Source of the DNA: Muricomes sp.
GTDB taxonomy: Bacteria; Bacillota; Clostridia; Lachnospirales; Lachnospiraceae
Assembly (NCBI GenBank): GCA_049840515.1
Contig: JASGKW010000019.1
Coordinates: 49,589 to 113,588 of the forward strand
Direction: 5' to 3'
DNA length: 64,000 nt
The notes under the pieces were generated by a model, which did not search any database, had not been told where the DNA came from, and saw nothing but the letters and a program-made list of their open reading frames with translations. Positions 4,601 through 38,732 of this stretch are shown here, in pieces; positions within the stretch are counted from its first letter, which is position 1; each line of letters opens with the position of its first letter. The position numbers and the translations under genes were made by a program.

Positions 4601-6214
4601 CACATAAACCGTAGTGGAAGTGACAATCTCTTCTCTGAGCGCGTCAATTGGCGGGTTTGTAACCTGTGCAAACAATTGTTTAAAATAATTGAACAGTGGC
4701 TGCTGTTTGCTGGAGAGCACTGCAAGGGGCACATCCGTTCCCATAGCTGCAATTCCCTCAGAACCATTCAGCGCCATATTGCAGATAGATTTCCGGTATT
4801 CTTCATAAGTATAGCCAAATGTTTTGAGTCTTCTGGCGAGAGCCTCTCCCTCGTACTCTTCCACTCGTGTATTTGGAATTTTCAAATCTTTCAGTTCTAC
4901 TAAATTACTGTCCAGCCACTCTCCATAAGGCTGTCTCTTAGCATAGATTTCTTTTAACTCATCATCGCTGAATACTTTTCCCTGTACAGTATCTACAAGC
5001 AGTATCTTTCCGGGGTGAAGGCGCTCTTTCAATACAATGTCTTCTTCCGGCACAGGCAGCACTCCCACCTCTGAGGAGAGGATGAAATCTCCACTCTTGG
5101 TGAGATAATATCTGGATGGGCGCAGACCATTTCTGTCAAGAATAGCTCCCATCACATCACCATCCGTAAAAAGGATAGAAGCCGGACCGTCCCATGGCTC
5201 CATCATAGTCGCATAGTATTGGTAAAAATCTCTTTTTTCCTGTGAAAGGGTGTTGTTATTTGCCCATGGCTCAGGAATTGTGGTCATAACTGCCAGAGGC
5301 AGTTCCATGCCATTCATCATCAAAAATTCCAGCGTATTATCCAGCATCGCTGAGTCTGAGCCTTTTGTATCTACAACCGGAAATACTTTGTGATAATGGC
5401 CTTTCAGGTAGTCGGAAACCATAGTCTCCTCCCTCGCCAGCATCTTATCTGCATTCCCTCTGATTGTGTTAATCTCGCCGTTATGTACAATAAGGCGGTT
5501 TGGATGAGCGCGCTCCCAGCTTGGATTGGTGTTTGTGCTGAAACGTGAATGCACCATAGCGATGGCAGACTCATAATTTACATCCTGAAGGTCGCTAAAA
5601 AATGTGCGGAGCTGACCTACAAGAAACATACCTTTATATACAACAGTGCGGCTTGACATAGATGCCACATATGTGTTGTCATTGCCTTGCTTAAAGCTGC
5701 GGCGGGCAACATACAATCTTCTCTCAAAAGGAAGACCTTTTTCCACATTTTCAGGTTTTTTGATGAATGCCTGCACAATATTAGGCATACACTCCAGGGC
5801 CTTGCTTCCCAAAACCTCAGGGCACACAGGTACCTGGCGATATCCTAAGAACTCTAAGCCCTCTTTTTCCATGGCAGTCTTAAACTGCTCCTTTGCCTGG
5901 TCACATTCCCTTTTATCCTTAGGAAAGAACAACATGGCGATACCATATTCCCGTTCCCCTCCAATGTCAATTTTTTCTTTCTTACAGGCATTGGCAAAAA
6001 ACTTATGGGAAATCTGAAGCATAATACCAACTCCATCACCTGTCTTTCCCTCCGCATCCTTGCCTGCTCTGTGTTCCAGATTTTCCACAATTTTCAGAGC
6101 ATTCTCTACAGTCTCATGGCTTTTTATTCCTTTGCTGTTCACCACAGCGCCTATTCCGCAATTATCATGTTCAAACTGTTGTAAGTATAATCCTTCATCT
6201 TTTCTCATAATCAT
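1666..6214 (-). pseudogene. gltB: Glutamate synthase large subunit, interrupted by a 1-nt frameshift (possible assembly error)
   Basis: Two overlapping ORFs together make one roughly 1500-aa GltB. ORF 2969-6214 (1081 aa) holds the N-terminal Cys amidotransferase (NCGIGAVV) and the FMN domain. ORF 1666-3096 (476 aa) holds the C-terminal domain. The frames join at [10 protein letters not shown] / [20 protein letters not shown], with one extra base near 3067-3073. Confidence 0.9.
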
Positions 6215-24705: not shown

Positions 24706-26592
24706 TCAAGAATAATATGATTCCTGCCTATTTTGCTTTGATAGCTGCCTGTGCTGCATTGCTACTGGGGAGTATTTTTCTCCTTTTATAGCATTCGCAA
24801 TATCTGCAATAAAAAGTATATTGCTATGTACCGAGGGCTTATCGCCCTCGTCAGTATTAGCTTGTTTTTGAATATATATAGTTGGATTATTCTTTCTGCC
24901 TTCCACTACCATATCAATTTCTTCAGTTTCCAAAGCACTTAGATTTACAAACCAAGCAAAATGATTATTCTCCTTTGGAACAACTCTTGCTATAAATTTA
25001 TCTATAAGGTCATTATATATTTGGGGAGCAGAAATATCAATAACTTCTTTCAATGTTGTATTAATTTTGTCCCAAGCTAATCCTTTCTCCTGCCTTGTAT
25101 TATTGGCAGTGCTCTGTTTTAGCAACTCTTCTTCATACTTACACATTTCTTCATCAAGATGCTTTCGTAGATTACGATATTCTTCGGTGGTGATATCTCC
25201 TTCTGTTCGCAAATCAATCAAATTACTGATTTTCATTTTTATTTTAGAGATTTTTCTTTGAATAAGTTCTGACTCTGCCTTTTTATCCCTACTCTCCTGA
25301 TAACATTCTTTCAGAATTGCACAAGCTTTCTGTATTGCCTCATTTTTGTTTAACCAAATCTGTTCCATCAGTTTTTTACACATAACCTCTAGTTTCCAGT
25401 CTGCCACCATCCGTACATCACAATAACCAGTATCATCTAACCCCTGTTCTCTTCTTTTTTTTGCAGAACCATTATTCAATTGATTATAACATTGATACCC
25501 ATATGACCAGTCCTTATTTTTGTTTTTATGCCAGCGGTTTTTCCTAAACGATGCCCCACAAGAACAATGGAGCTTTTTATTCCATTTATCTTTGGTTTCT
25601 TTTCTTGGTGACGTAATGCTTTCTTCTCCAAAAGGTGTTTTCTTCTTCATAGGAAGACTCAATTCTCTTCTTCGCCTTTTTCTGATTTTTTCGCACTTAT
25701 ACCAATCTTCTTCCGAAACAAGTGGTTCAAAACCAGCTTTTACATACATATAAGTATCTCTATTATGGTTATTTATTCTTTTTTGCTCAAGATAATTATT
25801 ACTAAATGACTTTCCATAAACCGCATATCCCATATAAGTTGGATTACCTAGCACTCTGCTAACATTAGAAGATGTCCATTTTACCTGACCTGATGCAGCT
25901 ACTCTTCTTCTATTACAAAGTTCATTTGCTATTTTAATTGTTCCAATTCCTTCATTTAGATACATGTCAAATATCATTCGAACTGTCTCTGCCTGTTCTT
26001 CATTTACTATATATTTTCCATCTACCCGATTATAGCCTAAAATATTACCATTTCCATAAACAACACCTTTAGTACGGCTAATGTGCTGGCCTGCCTTCAC
26101 TCGTTCTGATACTTTTCGACTCTCCTCCTGTGCTAGTGTTGCCATGATTGTCAGACGAAGCTCTCCATCATTATCCATTGTCCAAATGTTATCTTCAACA
26201 AAATACACTTCGATGCCAATACTTTTCAATTTTCTGGTTGTAACAAGTGTATCTACCGTATTTCTGGCAAATCTGCATACTTCACGAGTGACAATCAAGT
26301 CAAATTTTCCTGCTCCGGCATCTTCTAGCATCTTCAAAAATGCCGGACGTTTCTCCGCCTGTGTTCCAGTAATGCCCTCATCAATATACTTATTACACAC
26401 AACCCAGTTTGGATGGAATCTTGCCTGATCATCATACCATTGTATCTGATTCTCCAATGCTGATAATTGCGCCTCATGTTCAGTTGACACTCTACCATAA
26501 AACACAATATTTCTCTCTCTGTTTTTATCTTTAAATGTGTCAAATGGTAACTGAATATTCTTGCTAAAATCCACACTATTTTTATTCATCAC
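24706..26592 (-). CDS. Large serine recombinase (TnpX/TndX-like integrase)
   Basis: 628-aa ORF with the N-terminal resolvase catalytic domain (VFYGRVSTEHEAQ..., TREVCRFARN), a recombinase domain, a Cys-rich zinc-ribbon region (CSCG...CYNQ) and a C-terminal coiled coil. Confidence 0.9.
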   Translation of the reverse strand: MMNKNSVDFSKNIQLPFDTFKDKNRERNIVFYGRVSTEHEAQLSALENQIQWYDDQARFHPNWVVCNKYIDEGITGTQAEKRPAFLKMLEDAGAGKFDLIVTREVCRFARNTVDTLVTTRKLKSIGIEVYFVEDNIWTMDNDGELRLTIMATLAQEESRKVSERVKAGQHISRTKGVVYGNGNILGYNRVDGKYIVNEEQAETVRMIFDMYLNEGIGTIKIANELCNRRRVAASGQVKWTSSNVSRVLGNPTYMGYAVYGKSFSNNYLEQKRINNHNRDTYMYVKAGFEPLVSEEDWYKCEKIRKRRRRELSLPMKKKTPFGEESITSPRKETKDKWNKKLHCSCGASFRKNRWHKNKNKDWSYGYQCYNQLNNGSAKKRREQGLDDTGYCDVRMVADWKLEVMCKKLMEQIWLNKNEAIQKACAILKECYQESRDKKAESELIQRKISKIKMKISNLIDLRTEGDITTEEYRNLRKHLDEEMCKYEEELLKQSTANNTRQEKGLAWDKINTTLKEVIDISAPQIYNDLIDKFIARVVPKENNHFAWFVNLSALETEEIDMVVEGRKNNPTIYIQKQANTDEGDKPSVHSNILFIADIANAIKGEKYSPVAMQHRQLSKQNRQESYYS

Positions 26593-26632
26593 TTTATACC
26601 TCCTGCCGCTTATTTCTGTACTCTATCGAAAT

Positions 26633-26782
26633 TTAAGATATTTTTGAAATGTGCGAATTTCCTTTTTCATACTGCGATTTTTGATGAGTTCTTACATTAT
26701 TAAATGTGGCTTTATTTATTAATCCTTTTTTATATAAAATTTCTATTAGCATATATGCTGCATATAAATTATCAATACTCAT
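26633..26782 (-). CDS. Small hypothetical protein (49 aa) between mazF-like and recombinase genes
   Basis: This ORF falls below the track cut-off: MSIDNLYAAYMLIEILYKKGLINKATFNNVRTHQKSQYEKGNSHISKIS. The SD AGGAGA lies 5 nt before the ATG at 26782. I did not recognise a family. Confidence 0.35.
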   Translation of the reverse strand: MSIDNLYAAYMLIEILYKKGLINKATFNNVRTHQKSQYEKGNSHISKIS

Positions 26783-26821
26783 ATATTCTCCTAAAAAAAT
26801 AACGGCAGTTTCTACCTGCCG

Positions 26822-27337
26822 TTAGTCATCTATTCTTCCAATATAATAATCATACCCTTTTCGCACATTACAAAACATACAGGTATCTTTATATTGCTGT
26901 TCTGAATCTACCCTCTTAATATAGTTATTAGGTATCTCATAAAAATGTCTTGCACACACCGGACATAAGCATAATAATAAAGACGGTTCTTTAACTATTC
27001 CTGTGCTTGTACGCAATGCTACATTTATTTTTTTCATATGCACACTATCCAGCGTTCCAACATATTTTTTTAATCTCTTTTTATCAATTGTTCTTAATTG
27101 CTCAAGCAATACAACAGAGTTTTTTTCTAACCCCACAATGTCTCCTAACTTAACATGAGTAGGAAGTTTAGTCTTGGTCTTGCTTGTAATTGCTGCAACA
27201 ATAACCGTGGGACTGTACTGATTTCCCCTATTGTTTTGAATTATTAACACAGGACGATATCCCCCCTGTTCGCTCCCATAAACGGGACTTAAATCGGCAT
27301 GATAAATATCCCCTCGCCAAATTCTTTTATCTTGCAC
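26822..27337 (-). CDS. mazF: MazF/PemK (EndoA-like) endoribonuclease toxin fused to a C-terminal 4-Cys zinc-ribbon-like extension
   Basis: Residues 1 to about 115 are close to Bacillus EndoA ([63 protein letters not shown]). An extra tail of about 55 aa carries CPVC...CMFC. The start is GTG with the SD GGAGG 9 nt upstream. Confidence 0.8.
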
Positions 27338-27867
27338 TTTTATTAACCTCCAATTTCATTGTGAAACCTTATGCTATCCATTAAATCAACAACTAAATTA
27401 AAACTTTACTCACATATACAACATCTCAAATGTAATACCTATTTGTCCTCGACACCCCGGCTTTCATACCTGCCAATTGACAGGTAAAAGGAAGTCACCA
27501 GACGGCTGACAGCGAATCAGCTCCACGGGAATCACACCCTTCCGAGGATCTCCCGGAACTGCCCTCACTTGTTGCGACGCTTTTAACGCTCGACCTTATG
27601 ACCGGACAGGAGTATCATTATTTCTGTTGCCTGTTATCGCCTTATCGGAAGCCATCCGATATTTATGGCCAAATATATTCCGCTCCTTGAATGAACTACA
27701 TCAGCCGCAAATCTCTCTCTTTTCTCTGTGGGATTTCGCTGCTTGTGTTCCATCCAAATCATAGCGTATCTGCTAATGTGGCTTACGCTCATCACGATAA
27801 CAACAGGAATGTGCCTGGTGAATGGGTATGAAATTTTCAAGGTGCATCCCATTCTCCGTACAACAGA

Positions 27868-27900
27868 AAACAGGTGAGATTTTATTTCTCTCACCTGTTT
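27868..27900 (-). terminator. Intrinsic terminator after the sigma-factor-like gene
   Basis: Perfect 12-bp stem AAACAGGTGAGA / TCTCACCTGTTT with a 9-nt loop, followed by U-rich sequence on the minus strand. Confidence 0.65.
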
Positions 27901-27926
27901 CCTCACTAAAATGTAAAAAGTTGCCC

Positions 27927-28409
27927 CTACACTTCAAAATTTTTTAATTCTTTTTCCAATTGTTTAATAGCAGCATCAATAGAACGCTTGACTGGTACTT
28001 TCGTACATCCTTCTCTTTGAGCAATCTGCTCATATGTCATGTCTTCAAAGTAATACAGAATCAGTCTACGCCGCTGTATATCCGTTAATTTTCCAATCGC
28101 CATATGTAAACTTTCAATCAGAAACTTTTTTAATACACTTTCTTCCATATTGTGTGGTTTATGAAAAGCTCTTGTATTCAATGTAGAATCCCATATCTCT
28201 GACTGTTCAATATGTCTATCCCACACATTAAAATATGACAAATCTTCTAACTCAAATGAATTAAAAGCCTCATATAGCATTTTGTTGATTTCAAATCTAT
28301 TATATATACCTTGTCCATCTTTGAATGATATATAATAATGTCCATTCTGTTCACATATATCGTAAGGATTATACTTATCCTTTCTTCTTTTTGGATGTTT
28401 TCCCTCCAT
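27927..28409 (-). CDS. Sigma-70 region-4-type HTH protein (mobile-element sigma-factor-like regulator)
   Basis: The C-terminal part reads LTDIQRRRLILYYFEDMTYEQIAQREGCTKVPVKRSIDAAIKQL, a region 4.2 HTH. The SD GGAGGAA lies 7 nt before the ATG at 28409; the ORF is open to a TTG at 28424. Confidence 0.7.
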   Translation of the reverse strand: MEGKHPKRRKDKYNPYDICEQNGHYYISFKDGQGIYNRFEINKMLYEAFNSFELEDLSYFNVWDRHIEQSEIWDSTLNTRAFHKPHNMEESVLKKFLIESLHMAIGKLTDIQRRRLILYYFEDMTYEQIAQREGCTKVPVKRSIDAAIKQLEKELKNFEV

Positions 28410-28420
28410 ATTAAATTCCT

Positions 28421-28453
28421 CCAATTTAAATTTTTAAGAAAAATTTAAATTGG
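28421..28453. repeat. Perfect 15-bp inverted repeat with 3-nt spacer, abutting the sigma-like gene SD
   Basis: The sequence is CCAATTTAAATTTTT-aag-AAAAATTTAAATTGG. On the minus strand, the arm proximal to the gene ends in the TTGG of the TTGGAGG Shine-Dalgarno. Confidence 0.5.
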
Positions 28454-28514
28454 AGGGGAGAACGACACCCACCCCCCTTATATAATCTGCTGGTTTTTCC
28501 TATTTTGGGGCAAA

Positions 28515-28776: not shown

Positions 28777-30084
28777 CTACAAATTGCTTGCTGACAAAAT
28801 AATCTTAGTCTCAAAATAATCTTGAGAATAATCATAATCCATATTTCCACAATACTTATTGGCAAGGTTTGATAAAATTTCCATTCCTATTCCTAAATGA
28901 CCCGGTTTTGTAGATTCCAAATTTCCATTCCTGCAATGTGGCACTACTCCAATTGTATTTCTCATCCCAATAACAACATATTGATTGAAACGGTGAATCC
29001 GAAGACGGATTTCTTTCTTCTCTTTATTGCAATCCCTACAAGATTCAATAGCATTATCAAATAAATTAGAAAAAAGTGATGTCACTTCGCTTTTTCCCAT
29101 AAAGTCAAACTTTATATCCTGAAAATTAAGTTCCAGGCTAATATCTTCTTGTTTACATATTTGGATTTTCTCCCAAATAATAGTGCATACAATCTCATCC
29201 TCACATTTGAATTGTTGTTGAATATCATTGATAGATTCCATTAACTCACCAATATAAGTTTTTTTAATTTCCTTTTGACTCACATCCAAATTCTCAATTA
29301 CCTGTATATGCTTTTTAAAATCATGTATCAGTTTTTGCATTTCATCATATTGAGTCTGTAAACTTTCATAATACTTTACGGTCATTTTACTCTGCTGTTC
29401 TGTTAATTCCGTTTGCTTTTCAAGTATGGCATTTTGAGAGATCATTTTAAACAAATATATTACTCCTCCGTCAACAATCACAAACCCAATTGCTAAAATG
29501 AGCAATGTAATATTACTATGTGAACTTCTATGATCTTCTATAAAATAGCAAAGAAGTCCTAATTCAAAAATTAATAAAAAAATAGTGTAAAAGTGAATAT
29601 ACCTTGATACTTTGCCAATCTGACTTCGCATAATTAATTGTATTAGTAAACTACACGTACACAACATAGCTAACGCATTACAAATCCCGGAAATCATAAA
29701 AAACTGTGAATTTTCTAGCACCACGTATAAACTTGCACGCATAAAAATCGAAAAAATTGTAGTTACAATTAGATCTACCAATGCAAAATAAATAATAACA
29801 ATTGCCGAATTAATCACCACATTTTTTCTTTTGGTTTTATATAAAATGCATGATATCAAACACAAACTCAGCATAGAATATATTACATTTACCCCTGGCC
29901 AATTAAACATAGCAATTATGGTACTTAAAATAACATATACCAAAAATCCCCCCCAATAACATAATTTATTGTTTAAATATTTCTTTTCATATAAAGAGCC
30001 CATAATTGCAAATAGAACATAACCCGAAACAATTGAAGAAATAATCAGGCTACTTAAATAAAGCATTTTTATCACACCTTTCAA
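28777..30084 (-). CDS. agrC: AgrC-type (HPK10) sensor histidine kinase, GHKL ATPase domain
   Basis: 435-aa ORF. The N-terminal half has about 6 predicted TM helices and the C-terminus has a GHKL domain (NLFDNAIES..., GHLGIGMEI). It overlaps the LytTR regulator stop by 4 nt. Confidence 0.8.
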   Translation of the reverse strand: MKGVIKMLYLSSLIISSIVSGYVLFAIMGSLYEKKYLNNKLCYWGGFLVYVILSTIIAMFNWPGVNVIYSMLSLCLISCILYKTKRKNVVINSAIVIIYFALVDLIVTTIFSIFMRASLYVVLENSQFFMISGICNALAMLCTCSLLIQLIMRSQIGKVSRYIHFYTIFLLIFELGLLCYFIEDHRSSHSNITLLILAIGFVIVDGGVIYLFKMISQNAILEKQTELTEQQSKMTVKYYESLQTQYDEMQKLIHDFKKHIQVIENLDVSQKEIKKTYIGELMESINDIQQQFKCEDEIVCTIIWEKIQICKQEDISLELNFQDIKFDFMGKSEVTSLFSNLFDNAIESCRDCNKEKKEIRLRIHRFNQYVVIGMRNTIGVVPHCRNGNLESTKPGHLGIGMEILSNLANKYCGNMDYDYSQDYFETKIILSASNL

Positions 30085-30800
30085 ATTTTATTAAATGTAG
30101 ACTGCAAAAAGTTATTAAATTCAACTCTAAATCCAGCCGCTCTCTTTTGTGCTAAAGGAATAATTGAACCATTTTCCATAAATATATCAAACCCTTTTAT
30201 AAGCTTTATATAAAGCATATTGACAATGAACCCCTTATGAGGTGAGTTAAAATCATATTTTTGAAATTTTTCGAGCAGTTCCTTCAAACTATATGATGAA
30301 ATATATTTTTCTCTGCTACAATTAATAATTACTCTTCTAGATGAATATTCAAAATAGTAAATATCATCTAAATCTAAGGTGACAGTACCTTCTTCTGTTT
30401 CAAACGCATATTTTTGTTTCTTTCTAGCATTATCCGAATATTGCACTGCTTCCAGCAAAGCACAGCAAATCTCATTTTCACAAACGGGTTTGCTAATATA
30501 ATCAAAGGCATGAACCTTATAGGAACTTTTTATGTAATGCTCATAATTTGTTACATATATTATTTTGCTATTCACATCCCATTTTCTTAACATCCTTGCC
30601 GTTTCAATACCATTTAAATTAGGCATTTCAATATCTAGGAAAATAATATCAAAACGAATATGTGATTCTAATAAATTAACTCCACTTATAAATTTAACAA
30701 CCAACACTGGCCTTCGTATATTATCAAACCATCCTTTAATGATAGCAAATAATTTCTCTCGTACAGATTCATCATCGTCGCATACTGCAACCTTAATCAC
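30081..30800 (-). CDS. agrA: LytTR-family response regulator (AgrA-like)
   Basis: Receiver domain (KVAVCDDD...IIFLDIEMP) plus a C-terminal LytTR DNA-binding domain; 239 aa. Confidence 0.88.
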   Translation of the reverse strand: MIKVAVCDDDESVREKLFAIIKGWFDNIRRPVLVVKFISGVNLLESHIRFDIIFLDIEMPNLNGIETARMLRKWDVNSKIIYVTNYEHYIKSSYKVHAFDYISKPVCENEICCALLEAVQYSDNARKKQKYAFETEEGTVTLDLDDIYYFEYSSRRVIINCSREKYISSYSLKELLEKFQKYDFNSPHKGFIVNMLYIKLIKGFDIFMENGSIIPLAQKRAAGFRVEFNNFLQSTFNKI

Positions 30801-30846
30801 TATATCACCCCATTCAATATCCTATAACCTTTCAATTATTATATAC

Positions 30847-30875
30847 TAAAAAAAGAATCTTTCCATCAGATTCTT
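30847..30875 (-). terminator. Intrinsic terminator after agrB
   Basis: On the minus strand: 8-bp stem AAGAATCT / AGATTCTT followed by UUUUUUU. Confidence 0.6.
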
Positions 30876-30886
30876 TTCCTCATTCT

Positions 30887-31450
30887 TTATTGATTCCCTT
30901 TTTGTCTCTCAATTTCACTCATTAATAACATCACTGTCTGAATAATCCAAGCACATGAAATTCCTTTCAAAATTACGTTCAAAAAGAATCCCGCCAAAGA
31001 AATACACCCAAAACCAATTAAATATTTATGAGTTTTTTTACGATAATCCACCATTTCGTTTTCTTCCAGGGGATTATTATCTGCCTCCTGCGGTGATAAA
31101 CTCCATATAGTATAGCCACAAATTAACATCATTGTATAAAGTATATATGTATCCAACCTTTGAAATATATTTAGCAAGATGAGTAAACAAATTGAGACAA
31201 TAATGGTACAACAGTAACACCCTGTCACTGACTTTGCGTGGTAGCCGCCAGAATACTCTCGCATACTGGCATATGCTACCAAAAAGATAAAAACACCCCA
31301 AAACTCGCCACCAATGAACCCAATAACCAAAAATAATAATATATGGATAATCTTTTTTATAAATATATTAAGGCCATACCGATATATCTCAGTTTTTTCT
31401 TCGTCAATCACTTCGCTTCTGATAAGAAAAGATAAAATCTTTTTTTCCAT
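30887..31450 (-). CDS. agrB: AgrB-family autoinducer-peptide processing membrane protease
   Basis: 187-aa polytopic membrane ORF with the AgrB signature region MREYSGGYHAKS..C. Confidence 0.85.
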   Translation of the reverse strand: MEKKILSFLIRSEVIDEEKTEIYRYGLNIFIKKIIHILLFLVIGFIGGEFWGVFIFLVAYASMREYSGGYHAKSVTGCYCCTIIVSICLLILLNIFQRLDTYILYTMMLICGYTIWSLSPQEADNNPLEENEMVDYRKKTHKYLIGFGCISLAGFFLNVILKGISCAWIIQTVMLLMSEIERQKGNQ

Positions 31451-31454
31451 GTCA

Positions 31455-31610
31455 CTACTTGTTGCTTTTCTTCATACTTTTTACGCTGTCTGGCATTTTA
31501 GGTTGTCCATGCAAAAAAATACATGCTGAATTAGCATTTTTTTCAGCCATCTTATAAGATGTTACCGCAATAACTTCTGCTAAAGCCTTTTTAATTTTCT
31601 TGTCCATCAT
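31455..31610 (-). CDS. agrD: AgrD-like autoinducing-peptide precursor (51 aa, unannotated)
   Basis: This ORF falls below the track cut-off: MMDKKIKKALAEVIAVTSYKMAEKNANSACIFLHGQPKMPDSVKSMKKSNK. It has an amphipathic N-terminus, a single Cys, then a QPxxP charged tail as in AgrD. The SD GGAGGA lies 6 nt upstream, and the stop is 4 nt before the agrB ATG. Confidence 0.65.
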   Translation of the reverse strand: MMDKKIKKALAEVIAVTSYKMAEKNANSACIFLHGQPKMPDSVKSMKKSNK

Positions 31611-31663
31611 AATTATTCCTCCATAATCAATATTTTTTATAAATCTAGTTAAAGTATATTTCC

Positions 31664-31921
31664 TTATTTTTCAAATTTCAACAAGCCTGTGTAAAATACG
31701 ATTTTTTTGTTCAAACTACGACTTTTTAATGCAATTTTTATCAAATTCCCCGAATACTCCTGAGATATAAGAATATCTATATCCTCTAATGCTAATTTCT
31801 TAAATTCATCTAAGACACATTGAGGCAATATCGATTCTACTACAATCCAAGGGACACAACATTGCCTATACACATGAATTCTAATATATAAACGGATATC
31901 CTTCTTATTTAAAACCTTCAA
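31664..31921 (-). CDS. Hypothetical protein (85 aa) upstream of agrD
   Basis: ORF on the same strand, 53 nt upstream of agrD and divergent from the XRE gene. I did not recognise a family. Confidence 0.35.
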   Translation of the reverse strand: MKVLNKKDIRLYIRIHVYRQCCVPWIVVESILPQCVLDEFKKLALEDIDILISQEYSGNLIKIALKSRSLNKKIVFYTGLLKFEK

Positions 31922-31977
31922 AGTTTATTTCTATTTAAAATTTCATGCCCTATAATTTAGCAAGATGGAGGTACTGT

Positions 31978-32223
31978 ATGTGCAGATTCGATAAGACAAT
32001 TATGGGAGAAAGAATTAGAGTACAACGTGAATCACTGAATATCAGTCGGGAGCAGTTTGCAGAAATGCTTGGTGTTACCACAAAATTCTGTGGTGATATT
32101 GAATCCGGTGCACGCGGTACATCGCCTCAAACGCTGACCAAAATTTTTGATTGTCTAATGCTCTCTACTGATTACATTCTATTTGGAGAATCATCAAAAA
32201 CAAGTGATCAAATTTTCCTTTGA
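31978..32223 (+). CDS. XRE-family HTH transcriptional regulator (in-frame TGA at 32221; frame continues to 32304)
   Basis: HTH region MGERIRVQRESLNISREQFAEMLGVTTKFCGDIESGARGTSPQTL. The SD GGAGG lies 6 nt before the ATG at 31978. After the TGA, the same frame reads AINLCPETKKTHLLTVIEKIIESYNA*. Confidence 0.8.
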   Translation: MCRFDKTIMGERIRVQRESLNISREQFAEMLGVTTKFCGDIESGARGTSPQTLTKIFDCLMLSTDYILFGESSKTSDQIFL

Positions 32224-32366
32224 GCAATTAACTTATGCCCCGAAACAAAGAAAACACATTTGCTTACTGTTATAGAGAAAATTATTGAAAGCTACAATGC
32301 ATAAAATATTCAATAAAACTATATTTATCCATTATTATTTTATGATATGTTATTCTCCCTAAAAGT

Positions 32367-32394
32367 TTATCCGCCGGAATATTTCGGCGGATAA
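32367..32394. terminator. Bidirectional terminator between the XRE gene and the permease gene
   Basis: Perfect 10-bp stem TTATCCGCCG / CGGCGGATAA with an 8-nt loop. Confidence 0.6.
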
Positions 32395-32465
32395 ATTAAT
32401 TATGTAAAAACAAAATATGTTTATTATCTGAGACTTTTCCTAAATAATGTCCTATTTTAAATTTA

Positions 32466-35094
32466 TCACCCGTCATTTCTCAATTGCTCTATTGCACTTT
32501 TTCGAGATGTTTTCCTATAGACAACCTGTGGTAGCAAAACACAAAAAAGCAACAGAATGACAGCCACAATAATCAGCTCTTTTACAGGATAAACAAACCG
32601 AAAATAGGAAAGATTTCTCTTAATCATGAAGCCTACTCCCCAAATCAACAATGAACCTATGCTCAGTAAAGCTGCAAGCAAAATCCCCCAATAATATAAT
32701 CCTTCCATTATCATCATTTTTTTCAATTGCTTTTTTGTCATTCCAACACTCTCCATGATTACAAATTCCTTTTTTCTGGAAACCATATTAGTAATAATTA
32801 CATTCAAATAGTTAATAATCCCCAACAAAAGCAGACTTAGGCAAAGTGCAAACATTACGGTCCTTGTGTTATTCACATAATCTTCCATCCTTGCCCTTTC
32901 ATCTGAAGTGCTGAAAAGAGAATAAATATTAACTGCTTTTTGTTCGCTGTTCTTTTTTTTGATCAGTTCTGTCAGTTTTGCCTTTGCTAATGCCTCTTGT
33001 CCCTTTTTTGCATTTATTGAAAAACCAAATATCTGCTTTGGAAAATGAAGCCTCTCAAACCCTTTCTCACCAATAAGGAAATAATTAATGCCTTCTCCAT
33101 TCCAACTCATATCTAATGGAGGAAACCCTTTTATGGTTGTATCAAGATAACCGGAACAAACAAACTCCACTCCTTTATCTTCCGGATTCCCCTCTCCATC
33201 CATGGAATAAACTTGAGCAGGCATTCCATTTATTCCTTTTGCATTTAACTCTGACATTTCAGATAATTGATGTTTGTGCAGCACCAGTATACCAGTTCCA
33301 TTGCTTAAACTGTCTATATCAATGTCCAATTGATTCTTTCTTATATAATTTTCTAGTTTTTGAATATACTTGTCACTTACCACTTGTATTGTCATTGACG
33401 TATTACTTGTTCCACTTGCATACCCTGCTTCTTCAAGTGGCTGTACATATTCATCTGAGAAATCATATGAACCATAACATCCCCATATTTCTTTTACGCT
33501 ATTTTTGTCCAGTTCCTCCATATTTTCTATTTCTTTCATAAGACTTTCATCAAACAATGGTTTCTCTCTATCTACATGGAGCTGCTCCACCTTACTATAT
33601 GGAAATATATAAGCATTTACTGCGTCTTTCTGCGTACCTATTTCAAAATCTGATTTCTGAGAAAGTTGGTTCATTGTATCAGTGCCTGTTGAAATAAATG
33701 CAGCCAAGAGTGCCATCTCACATCCCACGAATAAAGCTATCAATGTAATCAAAAGCTTAGGCTTAGAACGAAATAAATTGTATCGGGCCATCCTCCCTAT
33801 TGACGCTCCCTTTCTTGATTTTGTTTTTCTATGGGGAAATACAGGAGACTGCACTATATCTATATGCTTCAATCGGGCTTAATTGTTTCAATTTTCTCAT
33901 GGTGTGTCCATTAGCCAATAACATCAGAACAATCACAATCAAAATTGCCCCCATCAAAATCTGAGGATACAGTATTGTCTGGATACTTATCTTTCCATTT
34001 TGCTGGAGAAACAAGCTACGAAATAATATGGGGAATCCTATTCCGCCAATCAAAAGACTGGCAATCCCCCCAATAATAGAACCCTTCACAATAATCTCTT
34101 TATTTTGTCTAAACAACAGTTTTTTGACCTGTTTTTGAGTAACACCAATTGTGAAAAGCAGACCATAATATTGAATATCTTTGGTAAAGGAAATAGAAAG
34201 CACATTATATATCAAAAGGTAAACACTCAGCAAAACAATAATGGTACATAAAACTGCAATCCCATATCCACCTATAAACTGATTCACAGCCTGAAAGCTG
34301 ATGGAATAACCTCCGACAAATTGTTGATTTTCATCTGTCAATGGTACATCTTGATACAACTGTCGTTCCATCTGGATATCACTTAAAAATTTCGATTTAA
34401 ATGTTATGAGTAACTTTTCAGGATATTTTGCTATTTCTTTCTCTTCCAAGTATTTTTCAGATAAATATACAGTTGGTATATTTTCTGATTCTTTTATGTA
34501 GTCATTATAATATCCGGATAACACAAATTCCTCTGTCAGTCCATTGCCATCGTTAACAGACCAACTTTTAAACTGGATGGGAACAGATAGTTTCATTCCA
34601 ATTTGAGGCTCCTGAATACCCAAACTTTCAAATAGTTTTTTCGGCAGCATTATTTCCTTTTTATCTGCCGGATAATGTCCTACGATTCCATCATAAGCAG
34701 GTTTTACAATTTTTTCATATCCAATTTTATCAAGAACCTTACATGTTGCAAAAGGTGTATCATTCTGAATCCAATCCCCTACGCTACACTCCTGTCCCAC
34801 ATATTCAATATAATCCAAATTCATTATTTTTTCATATTGTTCTTCTTTTGCATTGACTAAATAGGCAGATGCCGCACTGCCATTTTCCCGCAGGTTTTTT
34901 ATAGAATCAATAACAACCTTACCTTTTGCTACACTAAATACAGAGAAGAGCACAAATATCGCCAGAACTACTGCAAAAATCAAAATCTTATTACGATTGC
35001 GGTTTGCTTTTCTACTTGCACTTACGAGCTCCTGTATATCATCATTTTTTTTAGAATTTTTCATAAGTTGCCTCATATTATACGATTCTTCCAT
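32466..35094 (-). pseudogene. ABC transporter permease with two FtsX domains (about 880 aa), split by a 1-nt frameshift
   Basis: ORFs 33829-35094 and 32466-33872 overlap. Each has an extracytoplasmic domain plus an FtsX-type 4-TM bundle. The junction reads ...KLKQLSPIEAYRYS / SPVFPHRKTKSRKGASIGRMARYNLFRSKPK. Confidence 0.8.
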
Positions 35095-35740
35095 CTTCTA
35101 TCTGAATCACCCGATCTGACATGTCTGCAATTTTTTCATCATGTGTAATAATAGCCATTGTTTGATGATATTTCTTTGCCATTGCTTTCATAAGATGAAT
35201 TACTTTTTCACTGGTTTTGGAATCCAAGTTCCCCGTAGGTTCATCTGCCAATATAATAGCAGGCCGTGTTACCAGGGCTCTCGCAATTGCTGCCCTTTGT
35301 TGTTGCCCTCCAGACAATTCAGCAGGCATCTGATAAAGTTTTTCTTCTATGCTTAATTCCACTGCAAGTTGTTCAATAAATTCTTCATCAATAACTTCGC
35401 CATCCAGCTTAACTGGTAATGCAATATTCTCATATACATTCAATATTGGCACAAGATTATAGTTTTGAAATACAAATCCAATATTAGACCGTCGGAAAAT
35501 AGTAAGATCTTCACCATTCATAGATGACAAGACTTTCCCTTTCACAGATACCAGACCAGATGACGGATAATCTAAACCGCCCAACATGTTTAACAATGTT
35601 GATTTTCCACTTCCAGATGCTCCTGAAATAGCTATAAACTCGCCTTCATCAATAGATAAGTTGACATTATCTATTGCCTTGACTTCAATGTTACCGGTAG
35701 TATACACTTTGTTTAAGGAAACCGCTTTCATAATTTCCAT
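35078..35740 (-). CDS. ABC transporter ATP-binding protein (MacB/LolD-like)
   Basis: Walker A GASGSGKST, signature LSGGQQQR and Walker B ILADEPT. It overlaps the permease start. Confidence 0.9.
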   Translation of the reverse strand: MEIMKAVSLNKVYTTGNIEVKAIDNVNLSIDEGEFIAISGASGSGKSTLLNMLGGLDYPSSGLVSVKGKVLSSMNGEDLTIFRRSNIGFVFQNYNLVPILNVYENIALPVKLDGEVIDEEFIEQLAVELSIEEKLYQMPAELSGGQQQRAAIARALVTRPAIILADEPTGNLDSKTSEKVIHLMKAMAKKYHQTMAIITHDEKIADMSDRVIQIEDGRIV

Positions 35741-35782
35741 AAATCCTCCTTTTGAATCTGCACTGTAAAAACTATTTCAACA

Positions 35783-36448
35783 TCAGTTTATATATTTATC
35801 AAGAGGAGCTTTATCTACTCCTAAAAAATTTAAAATTTGAATGTCACCAAAATAATAAGACTCTATTTGCCCATTTTTAATATGAAACAAAGTGGGAACC
35901 GCTGCTATTACCAGATTTTCATCTGACACATTTGTATAATCTATAATTGGTGATTCTCTGACAGCATATATTTTTCCTTCTTCTTTTCCAGCATTTAGTT
36001 CCACAAATTCTTTATCTGCTTTTTTTATACTATAATCAAGAGGGGAATATCTTTCTTTCAAATTTGCCTCCGTAAGCCCATCCTGTAAAATCATTTTTCC
36101 TTTAACAACTTTACCTATCTCTTTGTCATATGCTTTATGGTGTTCATCCCAGTTATAATCCTTTATTCCTTCATTTCCTTCTGCTCTTGTATCTAACACA
36201 TATAGTTGATTGTTTCTTGCAAATTCGATAATTTCATCTCTTACATTATCACAATATGGACACCCTGCTCTTTGCGCATATACATAATAATCATCTTGCT
36301 CTTCCAAAAATTTGTTCACACTTGTTGTTTGCAAATCTTTATAGGGATTATCCGGAGCCCCTTTCACCCCTTGATAAAGCAAATATACGCCTCCACCTAT
36401 AATCATTACTAGAAATAAAATTCCTAACATATACATTTTTCTTCTCAT
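35783..36448 (-). CDS. Membrane-anchored thioredoxin-like protein (CPYC), bacteriocin-accessory-type
   Basis: N-terminal TM helix, CPYC at residues 63-66 and the cis-Pro motif VPT at 184-186. It lies between the C39 exporter and the ABC ATPase. Confidence 0.6.
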   Translation of the reverse strand: MRRKMYMLGILFLVMIIGGGVYLLYQGVKGAPDNPYKDLQTTSVNKFLEEQDDYYVYAQRAGCPYCDNVRDEIIEFARNNQLYVLDTRAEGNEGIKDYNWDEHHKAYDKEIGKVVKGKMILQDGLTEANLKERYSPLDYSIKKADKEFVELNAGKEEGKIYAVRESPIIDYTNVSDENLVIAAVPTLFHIKNGQIESYYFGDIQILNFLGVDKAPLDKYIN

Positions 36449-36495
36449 ATGTATGTACCTTTTATGGATTTCTCCATTTCCCTTCTTTTAGTATA

Positions 36496-38682
36496 TTATT
36501 GCCCTAGCAGCCTACAATAAATTCCTCCATTATCAATGAGTTCTTGATGGTGTCCATATTCTCTAATAACACCCTTTTCCAATACATAAATCATATCACA
36601 AGATTTTGCAATATTAGTTCTATGAGTAACAATAATGATTGTTGTGTTTGGTAAATACTGTTTTATTGCATTATTTATATTTTTTTCTAAATCAAAATTT
36701 AAATTACTAGTTGCCTCATCTAAAATTAAAATATGGGGGATTTTCAATATTGCACGCGCAATCATTAAACGCTGTTTTTGACCAGTTGATAGGTTACTTC
36801 CTCCCTCTTCCAATATAGTGTTATATTGTAAGGGTAACTCCATAATAAACTCGTGAATGTAGACTAACTTACAAACTTCAAACACGTCCTTTTCATTAAT
36901 ATTTGTATTTCCTAATAACAAATTATCCATTATAGAAATACTAAATAGAAATGTTTCTTGTGACACATAAACGATTCGTTCTCTTAACCATTCTGTATCA
37001 ATTTTGTCTATATTTTTTTCTCCAATAGTAATATAGCCATTTTCAAGTTTATATAATTTCATTAATAATTTCGTGATTGTAGATTTTCCGGAACCACTTT
37101 CTCCAATTATTGCGACATTAGATTTGGCCTTAATGTTTAAGCAAAAATTGTGAAGAACATTCTTCTCTGGATTATAGCCAAACGAAACCCCATCAAAGCA
37201 AATATCTTTTTGCAATATATCCAAATCTATTTCTTCTTCGCCCTCTGTAAATGTACATTCCTCTAAATCCAAATCCATAATTTCTTGTATTCTCTCTGTT
37301 GCCACAAGAGCTGTTTGTAACTGAGCTTGCATACCTATTAGATTTCTAATAGGATCGAAGAAGTATATAATTAATGCATTAAAGGTTATTAATTCGCCTA
37401 ACGTGAGCCTATTTAAGAAAATAAATATTACACCCATACCGAGAATGATTATTTCTCCAGTAAATCCAATCCAACTCTTTAATCCATATTGGAGGTTTTC
37501 TAAGCTTCCTAATTTATACATACTTTCTAAATAAGAATTAAATTTCTTTTTAACCATTTCAAAAGCATATGATTTTGCATTATATACTTTAACAGTCATT
37601 ATTCCATTAAGAAAATCTAAGATTCCAGACATTGTCTGTGCCTCATTTACAAGTTGATTTTTGCTGTATGTATCATATTTTTTTCTAAAAAGTATGGCAA
37701 CAATTATATAAAGAAAACACATAACCATCAACCCTAAAAACATTTCCTTATTTTGATAGTACAATATAAACCCTGCTACTATTACTGCAATAATATCAAT
37801 AAAAACTGTAAGGACTATCTTTGATAATAAATCTTGTATAACTGCAGCATCTTGGAATCTTGCAACTAATTCACCTACCCTGCGGTTATCAAAGAATTTT
37901 TGTTGCATTTTCAACAAATGACTATAAAAATCCATAGAAATCTTATTATTTATATGTTTTCCTAGTACCAATGATATATTTATTCGTAAAACATTTAAAA
38001 TTACTTTAGCTATAGTTAAAAGAAGAAAAGCCTCAACAACCAGAACCAAACTCTGAAATGCATATTCAGGCAAGATTTTATCTATTAGTATTTTATAATA
38101 AAATGCTGAGCCTATATTAATCACAGTATATAACAATGAAGTTGCAATAATAAAACAACATATTTTTTTATCTGAACTAAGTACCTCTAAAAGAAATAGG
38201 AATTTAGACGGCTTTTGATATTTTTCCCCAAACTCTTCTGTTGGTGACAATACTACCAAAACTCCAGTCCATTTATATTGTTTTTTACTCACTTTACAAG
38301 TTTCCAATTTCCTAAAAGAATCCCTAGACAATTTGATGATACCCTGAGCAGGGTCTGAAATAATAATTTTATCTTTTTCTATTTTTAAAATAACCACATA
38401 ATGTAATAAATCATTATCTACAATTACATGTGAAATACAGGGTAATGGAATGTTATCCATGTTATCCGTCTCATCCTGTATACATCTCATTGCATCAACT
38501 TTAAATCCAATAGATTGTGCACCTGAAATAAGGCCCTTAAGGCTAGTTCCCGTTGTATTAGTTCCCATTTCTTCTCTTAGCCTAGCTATTGACACATTTC
38601 CTTTATAAAACTTTGTAATAATAGCTAAGCATGTCGGACCACAATCAGACATATCATGTTGCTTTATATTAACAAATCTCAT
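36496..38682 (-). CDS. Peptidase C39 domain-containing ABC exporter (bacteriocin/competence-peptide type, ComA/LagD-like)
   Basis: N-terminal C39 motif QHDMSDCGPTCLAII, six TM helices, Walker A GESGSGKST, signature LSTGQKQR and Walker B LILDEATS. The ATG at 38682 follows GGAAGGGA. Confidence 0.9.
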   Translation of the reverse strand: MRFVNIKQHDMSDCGPTCLAIITKFYKGNVSIARLREEMGTNTTGTSLKGLISGAQSIGFKVDAMRCIQDETDNMDNIPLPCISHVIVDNDLLHYVVILKIEKDKIIISDPAQGIIKLSRDSFRKLETCKVSKKQYKWTGVLVVLSPTEEFGEKYQKPSKFLFLLEVLSSDKKICCFIIATSLLYTVINIGSAFYYKILIDKILPEYAFQSLVLVVEAFLLLTIAKVILNVLRINISLVLGKHINNKISMDFYSHLLKMQQKFFDNRRVGELVARFQDAAVIQDLLSKIVLTVFIDIIAVIVAGFILYYQNKEMFLGLMVMCFLYIIVAILFRKKYDTYSKNQLVNEAQTMSGILDFLNGIMTVKVYNAKSYAFEMVKKKFNSYLESMYKLGSLENLQYGLKSWIGFTGEIIILGMGVIFIFLNRLTLGELITFNALIIYFFDPIRNLIGMQAQLQTALVATERIQEIMDLDLEECTFTEGEEEIDLDILQKDICFDGVSFGYNPEKNVLHNFCLNIKAKSNVAIIGESGSGKSTITKLLMKLYKLENGYITIGEKNIDKIDTEWLRERIVYVSQETFLFSISIMDNLLLGNTNINEKDVFEVCKLVYIHEFIMELPLQYNTILEEGGSNLSTGQKQRLMIARAILKIPHILILDEATSNLNFDLEKNINNAIKQYLPNTTIIIVTHRTNIAKSCDMIYVLEKGVIREYGHHQELIDNGGIYCRLLGQ

Positions 38683-38732
38683 TTTTTTCCCTTCCAACTG
38701 AATATTTATTTCGATTTTATGTTTTACTAAGA

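Follow-up and report, generated by a model that had tools for sequence, protein, structure and literature searches.

The gene under study, here called mazF-Zn, joins a MazF/PemK endoribonuclease domain to a small zinc-binding domain and forms part of the recombination module carried by a conjugative element. In the window, that is, the whole 64,000-nt stretch of DNA which was analysed, this module comprises a sigma-like gene, a leader RNA, mazF-Zn, a small open reading frame (ORF) of 49 amino acids and a large serine recombinase, an order whose synteny is conserved across loci (Table 1). Upstream are conjugation genes with Pfam matches to Relaxase, T4SS-DNA_transf, TraG P-loop/AAA_10 and Lysozyme_like+CHAP, the serine recombinase stands at the end and housekeeping genes lie beyond it, which identifies an ICE of the Tn916/Tn1549 superfamily. 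The original prediction, which had placed the toxin beside the recombinase of a mobile element, was correct about this context, and the 49-aa ORF it had pointed out downstream of the fusion is present; searches of Pfam and NCBIfam returned no family match for this ORF. The Shine-Dalgarno GGAGG of the fusion gene occupies an identical position in all homologous loci. A hairpin resembling the terminator which covers the stop codon is present in one further locus (L092), and in elements with a tyrosine integrase its place is taken by xis, which begins within about 10 nt of the mazF-Zn stop; given this spacing, the two genes form one operon in such elements. The type of recombinase and that of the small ORF are strictly paired: 52 loci combine a tyrosine integrase with an Xis-like HTH protein, 7 combine a serine recombinase with the 49-aa type, and none is mixed.

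Table 1. Features of the recombination module and their positions in the window
Feature	Position	Strand	Basis or remark
Sigma-70 region-4 protein, 165 aa	27927..28424	-	Pfam Sigma70_r4_2 E 2e-9; NCBIfam sigma70-ECF superfamily
Hairpin with U-rich tail just 3' of the sigma-like gene	27864..27904	-	Probable terminator or attenuator; read from sequence
Conserved block CCTTGAAAATTTCATACCCATTCACCAGGCAC	27811..27843	-	Candidate leader-RNA promoter, not sigma-70-like
Leader RNA, 5' domain	27684..27805	-	Alignment A4 and RNAalifold
Leader RNA, 3' domain	27434..27683	-	Alignment A3
Rfam pemK RNA (RF02913), leader core	27523..27621	-	Full model, 1-61
UACAUU, MazF-type recognition motif	27429..27434	-	Just 3' of the last hairpin of the leader RNA
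Shine-Dalgarno GGAGG	27347..27351	-	9 nt before the GTG start; read from sequence
mazF-Zn ORF	26822-27337	-	171 aa, GTG start
MazF/PemK endoribonuclease domain (residues 8-110)	27008..27316	-	Pfam PF02452 PemK_toxin
C-terminal 4-Cys zinc-binding domain (residues 117-171)	26825..26989	-	Invariant Cys; tail-only AlphaFold model
Intrinsic terminator over the fusion stop codon	26790..26824	-	Scan: 9-bp stem, 5 GC pairs, then T7
49-aa ORF, goes with serine recombinase	26633..26782	-	Kept in serine-recombinase contexts L087-L092
Large serine recombinase, end of conjugative element	24706..26592	-	Pfam Resolvase and Recombinase

The N-terminal part of the protein is a member of the PemK_toxin family, scoring 118.5 bits against a cut-off of 23.1 (E 1.9e-34), and the structures nearest to it in the PDB are 4hke, a PemK toxin, and EndoA/YdcE of B. 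subtilis (E ~1e-34 to 1e-33, residues 6-115), which bears out the original description of the first 115 or so residues as an EndoA-like MazF. Residues G21, R28, P29 and T51 correspond to G18, R25, P26 and T48 of MazF-bs, known as catalytic or RNA-contact residues (PMC8634880), and are invariant in alignment A1, which holds 18 sequences; the residue offset to MazF-bs was taken from the PDB structure matches. The homologue search scored at least 8000 candidates, none of them with an E above 0.001; among these, the best 120 share 62-71% identity over 94-100% of the length. The suspicion that the C-terminal extension could be a frameshift artefact can be discarded, because thousands of full-length homologues carry the tail. 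The fusion is real and widespread.

The 55-residue extension itself was described correctly, together with its four cysteines, which are arranged as C125-x2-C128 and C153-x2-C156 with 24 residues between the motifs (28 from first Cys to first Cys) and are invariant in alignments of 18 and 74 homologues. An AlphaFold model of the tail alone reached a pLDDT of 86.5 and predicts a beta-alpha-beta...beta layout, in which the first CxxC falls where a strand passes into a helix; the model of the whole protein was of low quality (pLDDT 55.7, with the MazF part below 50). This small domain is new, with no family assignment and no structural counterpart: no family was found in Pfam, NCBIfam, PADLOC or PHROGs, zinc-ribbon Pfam models matched the tail with E > 0.1 only, and a PDB fold search with the tail-only model gave no significant match (best E 0.96). 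A literature search likewise found nothing on MazF fused to a zinc ribbon.

The domain also occurs outside the fusion. A tail-only search of a word-indexed protein database recovered mainly gene fragments from the ends of contigs, plus a single split gene, and the true stand-alone zinc proteins came from an exhaustive profile search of the zinc domain, which yielded 607 cluster representatives. In loci L272-L275 and L277, a separate zinc gene of 60-65 aa overlaps the 3' end of a PemK gene of 116-120 aa by 4-14 nt, so that the tail is homologous to a stand-alone protein encoded beside an unfused toxin. In two others (L270, L276), an orphan zinc protein directly follows the 3' hairpin of the leader RNA, without MazF, and a phage carries one stand-alone zinc gene between its terminase and portal genes, far away from any toxin. 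Conversely, mazF genes without any zinc domain were found behind the same leader RNA.

A tblastn search of the whole window with three MazE proteins gave nothing meaningful, and the claim that a MazE-type antitoxin gene is missing upstream thus holds. The noncoding gap, originally put at about 530 nt, does lack a conserved ORF, but it really measures 589 nt, counted between the stop of the sigma-like gene (27927) and the start codon (27337), and it houses a structured RNA; the adjacent MazE-type gene of a type II MazEF system is absent. A hidden peptide gene in the gap was considered and rejected, as the open stretches vary in strand, frame and length among loci.

Filling the gap is a sizeable RNA, conserved and structured, which extends the Rfam pemK motif; the original prediction had missed it, along with the MazF-type cleavage site which follows it. 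The leader fits RF02913 over model positions 1-61 of 61, scoring 59.7 bits where the gathering threshold is 34.8 (E 1.5e-9), and this is the sole Rfam match in the whole window. As in the Rfam family, the motif is on the same strand as a downstream gene of the pemK family, ending 185 nt upstream of its GTG start. In contrast to the Rfam model, the covarying structure reaches about 380 nt here and includes a domain on the 5' side, a closing helix and a 3' hairpin whose loop is invariant. The 3' domain is built of a 5' hairpin, a long-range closing helix, the pemK core and the 3' hairpin, whose invariant loop is CGGGGUGUCGAGGACAAAUAGG; alignment A3 supports 54 pairs in 10 helices, with 97.9% of cells paired. 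Changes on both sides affect 24 of these 54 pairs, against 10.6 +/- 1.9 in shuffles (0/500) and 3-7 in slid controls. For the 5' domain, RNAalifold gave 41 pairs on alignment A4, 19 of them with compensatory changes; it has no Rfam match and no conserved ORF. Folding of the window's RNA as a single sequence was unremarkable (z = -0.81). A pseudoknot between 5' UACUCC and GGGGUG of the 3' loop was considered by eye and dropped, the U-to-C variants of the loop being uncompensated in A3.

Two further elements precede the 5' domain. The hairpin GAAACAGGTGAG...CTCACCTGTTT behind the sigma-like gene is kept in alignments with compensatory changes, and a simple terminator scan did not flag it. The block CCTTGAAAATTTCATACCCATTCACCAGGCAC is near-invariant across lineages, L008, L049 and the Tn5397-like L178 included, and a promoter scan for the leader RNA detected no sigma-70 consensus promoter there.

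The RNA is conserved, structured and co-occurs with the fusion. A match to the A3 profile lies upstream of the start in 64/64 fusion loci, these being the ones with more than 700 nt of upstream sequence; the loci are mutually related, and such counts overstate the number of independent events. The pemK RNA itself was also identified upstream of the fusion genes in L001, L002, L004, L005 and L006. Contrary to the Rfam description, the core also occurs without pemK: it precedes xis, tnpW or recombinase genes in modules devoid of MazF (L178, L179, L205, L250, L268), and in the Tn5397-like L178 it lies upstream of tndX. The core RNA must therefore have a function independent of the toxin. The 3' extension, comprising the closing helix and the GGACAAAUAGG hairpin, occurs exclusively in loci with MazF or the zinc protein and is lacking in the MazF-free modules. 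The motif originates from 'Detection of 224 candidate structured RNAs' (PMC5737381), a work whose main text makes no mention of pemK. The RF02913 entry classes the pemK RNA as cis-regulatory, and a literature search found no functional study of it.

Between the leader RNA and the start codon, a stretch referred to here as the linker, a single short motif is retained. TACAT is the only 5-mer common to all 33 non-redundant linkers, where it stands in at least 5 different sequence contexts and has a chance occurrence of 8-29% per linker. The longer form TACATA is present in 32 of the 33; the window has TACATT (UACAUU), and its position homologous to the UACAUA site of the main lineage has degenerated. 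Among leaders, UACAUA was recorded in 92/97 linked to MazF against 0/5 of those free of it. The fusion ORFs, for their part, avoid the motif, with 0 TACATA and 6 TACAT where 19.5 would be expected (P = 4e-4). The predicted accessibility of the UACAU site is slightly above the linker average (0.54 vs 0.42). The site is not universal, since in some lineages with MazF behind this RNA (L184, the second copy in L135, and L272) UACAUA is missing and a terminator hairpin is present. The MazF proteins of B. subtilis, Listeria and S. aureus cut U^ACAUA (bioRxiv 10.64898/2026.08.06.743204), and UACAU(A) is likely to be the cleavage specificity of the fusion as well, judging from its identity of about 60% to EndoA.

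Set against the MazEF systems of Bacillota (MazF/EndoA, NdoA), the fusion thus has a clearly homologous stretch of 115 N-terminal residues, in which the catalytic and RNA-contact residues are kept, and its leaders retain a motif which matches the published cut site. It differs from them in having no MazE gene, in bearing an additional conserved 4-Cys domain and in having a structured RNA of about 380 nt ahead of it; unlike the chromosomal alr-mazEF-rsb locus, it sits beside a recombinase in a conjugative element. The occurrence of a folded RNA and a likely cutting site in the place of an antidote gene suggests RNA-based self-control. The explanation tentatively favoured here, which is possible rather than established, is that an EndoA-type MazF with a zinc domain and without MazE is held in check via its own leader RNA, by feedback through self-cleavage. 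The nuclease would recognise the one UACAU(A) which is conserved between the folded leader and the ribosome-binding site of its own gene and cut its own transcript there, parting the structured RNA from the coding portion; the resulting negative feedback would keep its own expression low. In elements with a tyrosine integrase, this cut would have an effect on xis and int too, as they share the transcript. The zinc domain would act as a separable partner module of the leader RNA, probably tethering the nuclease to the leader or aiding its inactivity; a link between this domain and the RNA is suggested by the orphan copies in L270 and L276 and by the basic charge of the tail in homologues. While the presence and conservation of the components are observed, we infer the cleavage specificity, the self-cleavage, the direction of the feedback and the binding of RNA by the zinc domain.

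Under this explanation, the orphan pemK RNA motif gains a testable role, tied to a protein architecture, a type of element and a MazF cut site in the leader, and the module illustrates a way in which a MazF-type toxin might safely persist when MazE is lacking. Such MazE-free upkeep bears on the evolution of toxin-antitoxin systems and on annotation, as these genes are currently labelled as ordinary type II toxins. In a more integrated form, which is unlikely, RNA, zinc domain and MazF would be one RNA-protein switch: the zinc domain would dock the nuclease on the leader, the leader would serve as both inhibitor and, through UACAU(A), substrate, and the state of the complex would set the expression of xis/int or the recombinase, or else poison cells which lose the element. 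Were this true, it would be an RNA-controlled toxin distinct from types I, II and III and wired into the excision decision of the element.

Among the alternatives, a fused toxin-antitoxin pair is doubtful, albeit the best placed. On this view, which takes up the cis-acting autoinhibitory domain of the original prediction, the zinc domain would keep MazF inactive in cis, to be set free by a trigger, for instance a phage or the loss of the element. The lack of a MazE gene in the window is consistent with it, as are the separate zinc gene overlapping the mazF stop, a layout typical of two-gene toxin-antitoxin systems, and the orphan copies of the domain behind the RNA. The charge of the domain argues against it: the acidic tails of MazE fill the groove of MazF, whereas the zinc domain is basic in most homologues, with a net charge of +3 to +7. 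The same holds for the mazF genes which stand behind the same RNA with neither a zinc domain nor an obvious replacement, for the copy between phage terminase and portal genes with no toxin near, and for the lack of a PADLOC match. A precedent is offered by CapRel, a fused toxin-antitoxin with a C-terminal pseudo-zinc-finger antitoxin domain (bioRxiv 10.1101/2022.05.30.493996). Both are single polypeptides with an N-terminal toxin and a small C-terminal domain of zinc-finger type, and in the relatives of mazF-Zn the latter is also found as a separate gene beside the toxin. However, the toxin families are unrelated, and the present tail is basic, gave no match to a known antitoxin family and is absent from PADLOC.

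A control resembling type III systems is unlikely. The structured RNA would here be the antitoxin, binding and inhibiting the nuclease, perhaps via the zinc domain, with the motif or terminator setting an excess of RNA as in ToxIN. The position of the RNA, directly upstream and on the same strand in all 64 fusion loci with sufficient upstream sequence, speaks for this, together with the UACAUA or terminator hairpin which stands between RNA and toxin gene and the restriction of the 3' extension to loci with MazF or the zinc protein. In ToxIN likewise, the RNA and the endoribonuclease gene which immediately follows it share a transcript and are separated by a terminator or processing site, and in both systems the transcript may be processed at the cut site of the toxin itself. 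Nevertheless, the RNA of the fusion is one large folded domain in single copy instead of a tandem array of short repeats (Tandem Repeats Finder gave 0 rows for 26600-28000), the toxin belongs to the MazF family and not to ToxN or AbiQ, and the pemK core is also found without any toxin.

It is similarly improbable that the pemK RNA is a plain cis-regulatory leader (an attenuator, a riboswitch or the target of the sigma-like protein) for the recombination genes, the UACAU being incidental and mazF-Zn being a passenger, tolerated because a 6-nt specificity makes the nuclease mild. The classification in Rfam and the occurrence of the core ahead of xis, tnpW or recombinase genes without MazF agree with such a role, as does the sharing of an operon by mazF-Zn and xis in tyrosine-integrase elements; moreover, MazF of B. 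subtilis has been described as a non-lethal regulator. What it leaves unexplained is the retention of UACAU in every non-redundant MazF-linked linker and its absence from MazF-free leaders, the avoidance of the motif in the ORFs, and the extra RNA domains which appear only with MazF or the zinc protein.

Finally, the earlier suggestion of a reversed-order pair, with the downstream 49-aa ORF as antitoxin, is hardly credible: it is the nearest small ORF and is kept beside the fusion gene in the serine-recombinase elements L087-L092, but it tracks the type of recombinase and not the toxin, and the reading therefore fails. In each of the 52 tyrosine-integrase elements, an unrelated Xis-like HTH protein takes the place of the 49-aa ORF, and similar small ORFs (DUF6870 or TnpW-like) stand ahead of serine recombinases without MazF; in the window, a terminator lies between it and the gene of the toxin.

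Conjugative elements of gut Clostridia and related Bacillota commonly carry the module, among them Tn5397- and C. difficile-type elements, which spread resistance genes and other cargo; should the module govern the excision or maintenance of these elements, it would affect horizontal gene transfer in the gut. An island of C. difficile has the order serine recombinase, hypothetical protein, PemK/EndoA and sigma-70 (PMC6814731). Recombination modules of the Tn916/Tn5397/Tn1549 type (orf7 sigma-like, orf8, xis/tnpW, int/tndX) follow the same succession of a sigma-like gene, leader, small ORFs and terminal recombinase, and the Tn5397-like element shares the pemK core RNA. They differ in that mazF-Zn occupies the place of the orf8-type HTH gene and that its RNA has extra domains. 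The sigma-like protein, whose gene is found upstream of the module in 46/61 loci, distantly resembles the Orf7-type sigma factor of Tn5397/Tn916; in region 4 it is 31% identical to the sigma-70 family protein of the Tn5397-like locus.

The best-supported reading of the locus, drawn from comparative sequence analysis, is that a MazF-type nuclease in the control region of a conjugative element would be governed via its leader RNA, not by MazE. The gene, here called mazF-Zn, encodes by sequence a member of the MazF/PemK family: residues 8-110 match the Pfam PemK_toxin domain (E 1.9e-34), and the solved structures nearest to residues 6-115 are the PemK toxin 4hke, S. aureus MazF and B. subtilis EndoA/YdcE (E about 1e-34 to 1e-33). 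Residues G21, R28, P29 and T51, which correspond to G18, R25, P26 and T48 of MazF-bs (roles described in PMC8634880), are invariant in an alignment of 18 sequences. The remaining 55 residues carry the motifs C125-x2-C128 and C153-x2-C156, whose four cysteines are invariant in alignments of 18 and 74 homologues. The original prediction of an EndoA-like MazF with a four-cysteine tail and no MazE-type antitoxin is thus borne out, as tblastn with three MazE proteins gave no meaningful match in the entire window. The homologue search which it proposed, conducted with the full-length fusion, recovered at least 8000 scored candidates, every one at E <= 0.001, the best 120 of them with 62-71% identity and 94-100% query coverage; the fusion is therefore real and common. 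The start position is identical across homologous genes, each preceded by a Shine-Dalgarno sequence. Since full-length homologues are common and the cysteines invariant, a frameshift artefact is excluded as the origin of the tail. Many metagenome contigs (L094-L097, L003, L083-L085 and others) end within mazF-Zn or shortly 5' of it, so that 'stand-alone tail' genes are called falsely; the module probably represents a repeat common to several elements of one community.

Features of the mazF-Zn locus and of the neighbouring cargo (window positions)
Feature	Position	Strand	Detail
49-aa ORF	26633-26782	minus	
mazF-Zn ORF	26822-27337	minus	171 aa, GTG start, GGAGG 9 nt 5' of it
Leader 3' domain	27434-27683	minus	54 pairs, 10 helices, 97.9% of cells paired
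pemK RNA (RF02913)	27523-27621	minus	Rfam, 59.7 bits vs gathering score 34.8
Leader 5' domain	27684-27805	minus	41 predicted pairs, 19 compensatory
Cargo set, peptide-signalling/bacteriocin-like by appearance	28777-38697	minus	
GHKL histidine kinase	28777-30084	minus	
LytTR response regulator	30081-30800	minus	
AgrB	30887-31450	minus	
FtsX-type ABC components	32466-35740	minus	
C39-peptidase ABC exporter	36496-38697	minus	

The region upstream of mazF-Zn had been described as about 530 nt of noncoding sequence. It measures 589 nt to the upstream gene and holds a structured RNA; no conserved ORF was found in it. The pemK RNA is the sole Rfam match across the whole window, and the motif also occurs 5' of the fusion genes in L001, L002, L004, L005 and L006. 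Scanning of nine other loci gave no such hit 5' of the tail-less MazF gene in seven of them, L008 and L049 being the two that differed. The leader is a member of the Rfam pemK family, whose model spans the core only: in an alignment of 33 non-redundant upstream regions, conservation reaches well past its 61 positions. In the 3' domain 24 pairs are altered on both sides, in comparison to 10.6 +/- 1.9 in shuffles (0/500) and 3-7 in slid controls, and the profile of this domain matches 5' of the fusion gene in 64 of 64 cases where the upstream sequence is longer than 700 nt. Single-sequence folding of the window's RNA is uninformative (z = -0.81), and the case for the structure is accordingly made by covariation. 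A near-invariant block, CCTTGA[A/C]AA...CATTCAT, lies just past the hairpin behind the sigma-like gene and may be a non-sigma-70 promoter. At 27467-27484(-) the leader contains a near-perfect palindrome, ACCTGTCAATTGGCAGGT, situated in a variable-length hairpin insertion (columns 267-300 of the 3'-domain alignment, A3) and outside the conserved elements.

Between the last hairpin and the start codon, the linker sequence differs from lineage to lineage. The sole 5-mer common to 33/33 linkers is TACAT, extended to TACATA in 32, at differing positions and in at least five unrelated sequence contexts, while its chance of occurrence per linker is 8-29% (dinucleotide shuffles). By prediction, the site is slightly more accessible than the linker is on average. 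TACATA is missing from the fusion ORFs, and TACAT occurs in them six times, against 19.5 expected (P = 4e-4). In the window, the counterpart of the main-lineage GCUGAUACAUAC has degenerated to GGAUAGCAUAAGG (27367-27379(-)), so that this site is lost there; the single UACAU is a UACAUU at 27434-27429(-), immediately 3' of the 3' hairpin, with U replacing A. U^ACAUA has been reported, with strict specificity, as the site at which MazF of B. subtilis, Listeria and S. aureus cuts (2026 preprint, 10.64898/2026.08.06.743204), and UACAU had previously been assigned to the enzymes of B. subtilis and S. aureus (Park 2011 and Zhu 2009, cited in PMC8634880).

An RNA-profile search over all retrieved loci, including those that a pattern scan had picked out of viral contigs, revealed several variants of the module. 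Fused mazF-Zn (type a) has UACAUA in 81 of 82 cases. In type b, a MazF without the zinc domain follows the full RNA, and several loci present UACAUA as a hairpin loop (CUGCC-UACAUA-GGCAG); it is missing from L194, L184 and the second copy in L135, the latter two having a terminator hairpin in its place. In type c, represented by L008 of Caproicibacter fermentans, the RNA is separated from a tail-less MazF by two acidic ORFs (3785-4990). These encode 235 and 164 aa, the 164-aa protein having an acidic C-terminal tail and lying at the antitoxin's usual place. In type d (L049) the tail is degenerate and its cysteines are lost. Type e has no MazF: the RNA core, whose match ends short of the 3' hairpin, precedes TnpW-like or Xis genes and a recombinase, and UACAUA occurs in 0/5. 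An example is L178, a Tn5397-like region of an E. faecium plasmid, with pemK RNA (68.9 bits, 3501-3598) between orf8 and tndX. L178 also features Rfam SQ2397, 'cis-regulator of HTH transcription factor', at 2156-2385, 5' of an orf7-type sigma gene.

UACAU(A) is thus kept in leaders, avoided in ORFs and absent from leaders without MazF, a pattern which suggests that the nuclease cuts its own transcript between the folded RNA and the coding part. The simplest outcome, as we infer its direction, would be negative feedback, the toxin lowering its own expression; in Tyr-integrase elements this would reach xis and int, which are tightly coupled there.

As for the zinc domain, it forms a separable module with links to MazF and to the RNA alike. 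An exhaustive tail-profile search yielded 607 cluster representatives, including genuine stand-alone proteins of 60-67 aa. In L272-L275 and L277 the gene overlaps the stop of PemK, which is encoded separately there (116-120 aa); in L270 and L276 it stands behind the RNA's 3' hairpin, MazF being absent. It may be that the domain tethers the nuclease to the leader RNA. In homologues the domain carries a net charge of +3 to +7, and the window's copy one of 0. By analogy with the pseudo-zinc-finger domain of CapRel, it may also act as a built-in antitoxin. AlphaFold models the tail by itself with confidence (pLDDT 86.5; beta-alpha-beta...beta layout), and this model has no significant structural neighbour in the PDB, while the full-length model is of too low quality for placing the tail against the nuclease. 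The domain has no match in Pfam, NCBIfam, PADLOC or PHROGs. A type III-like role of the leader RNA may likewise be considered, but the repeat array which defines ToxIN-type systems is absent, and the locus fails that definition, as it fails that of type II MazEF for want of a protein antitoxin. These three readings are not mutually exclusive. A 62-aa homologue of the domain lies between phage large terminase and portal genes (L271, 2472-2660), with neither a MazF gene nor pemK RNA nearby.

The conjugative element in which control via the leader RNA is proposed occupies the minus strand from about 24.7 kb to past 64 kb, with genes for a relaxase, coupling protein, VirB4-like ATPase, CHAP/lysozyme hydrolase, Toprim protein and large methylase, and with an agr-like quorum-sensing set and bacteriocin-type ABC exporters as cargo. 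It ends at a large serine recombinase, past which lie housekeeping genes. The order Sigma70_r4 gene, gap of ~600-700 nt, mazF-Zn, small ORF, recombinase is kept in homologues, and a recombinase lies within 2.5 kb in 62 of the 67 loci with sufficient downstream sequence. The downstream 49-aa ORF is present, but its pairing with mazF-Zn as a reversed-order toxin-antitoxin system is rejected, because the small ORF follows the recombinase type (Tyr integrase with an Xis-like HTH protein in 52 loci, Ser recombinase with a 49-aa-type ORF in seven, mixed pairings in none) and hence belongs to the recombinase. A C. difficile island has been annotated with serine recombinase, hypothetical protein, PemK/EndoA and sigma-70 in sequence, without comment (PMC6814731), and the literature search found no study on the zinc tail, the extended RNA or the leader motif. 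Both the RNA motif, until now an orphan, and the widespread toxin misannotated as 'type II' are thereby opened to direct experiment.

The terminator scan flagged an AT-rich palindrome, perfect and with a stem of 18 bp (CCTCCAATTTAAATTTTTCTTAAAAATTTAAATTGGAGG), at 28418-28456(-). It overlaps the 5' end of the sigma-like gene and could be an operator or a terminator of the upstream kinase gene. A 1969-aa ORF (56360-62269(-)) has an N6 DNA methylase as its sole recognisable domain; such giant proteins are typical of conjugative elements.
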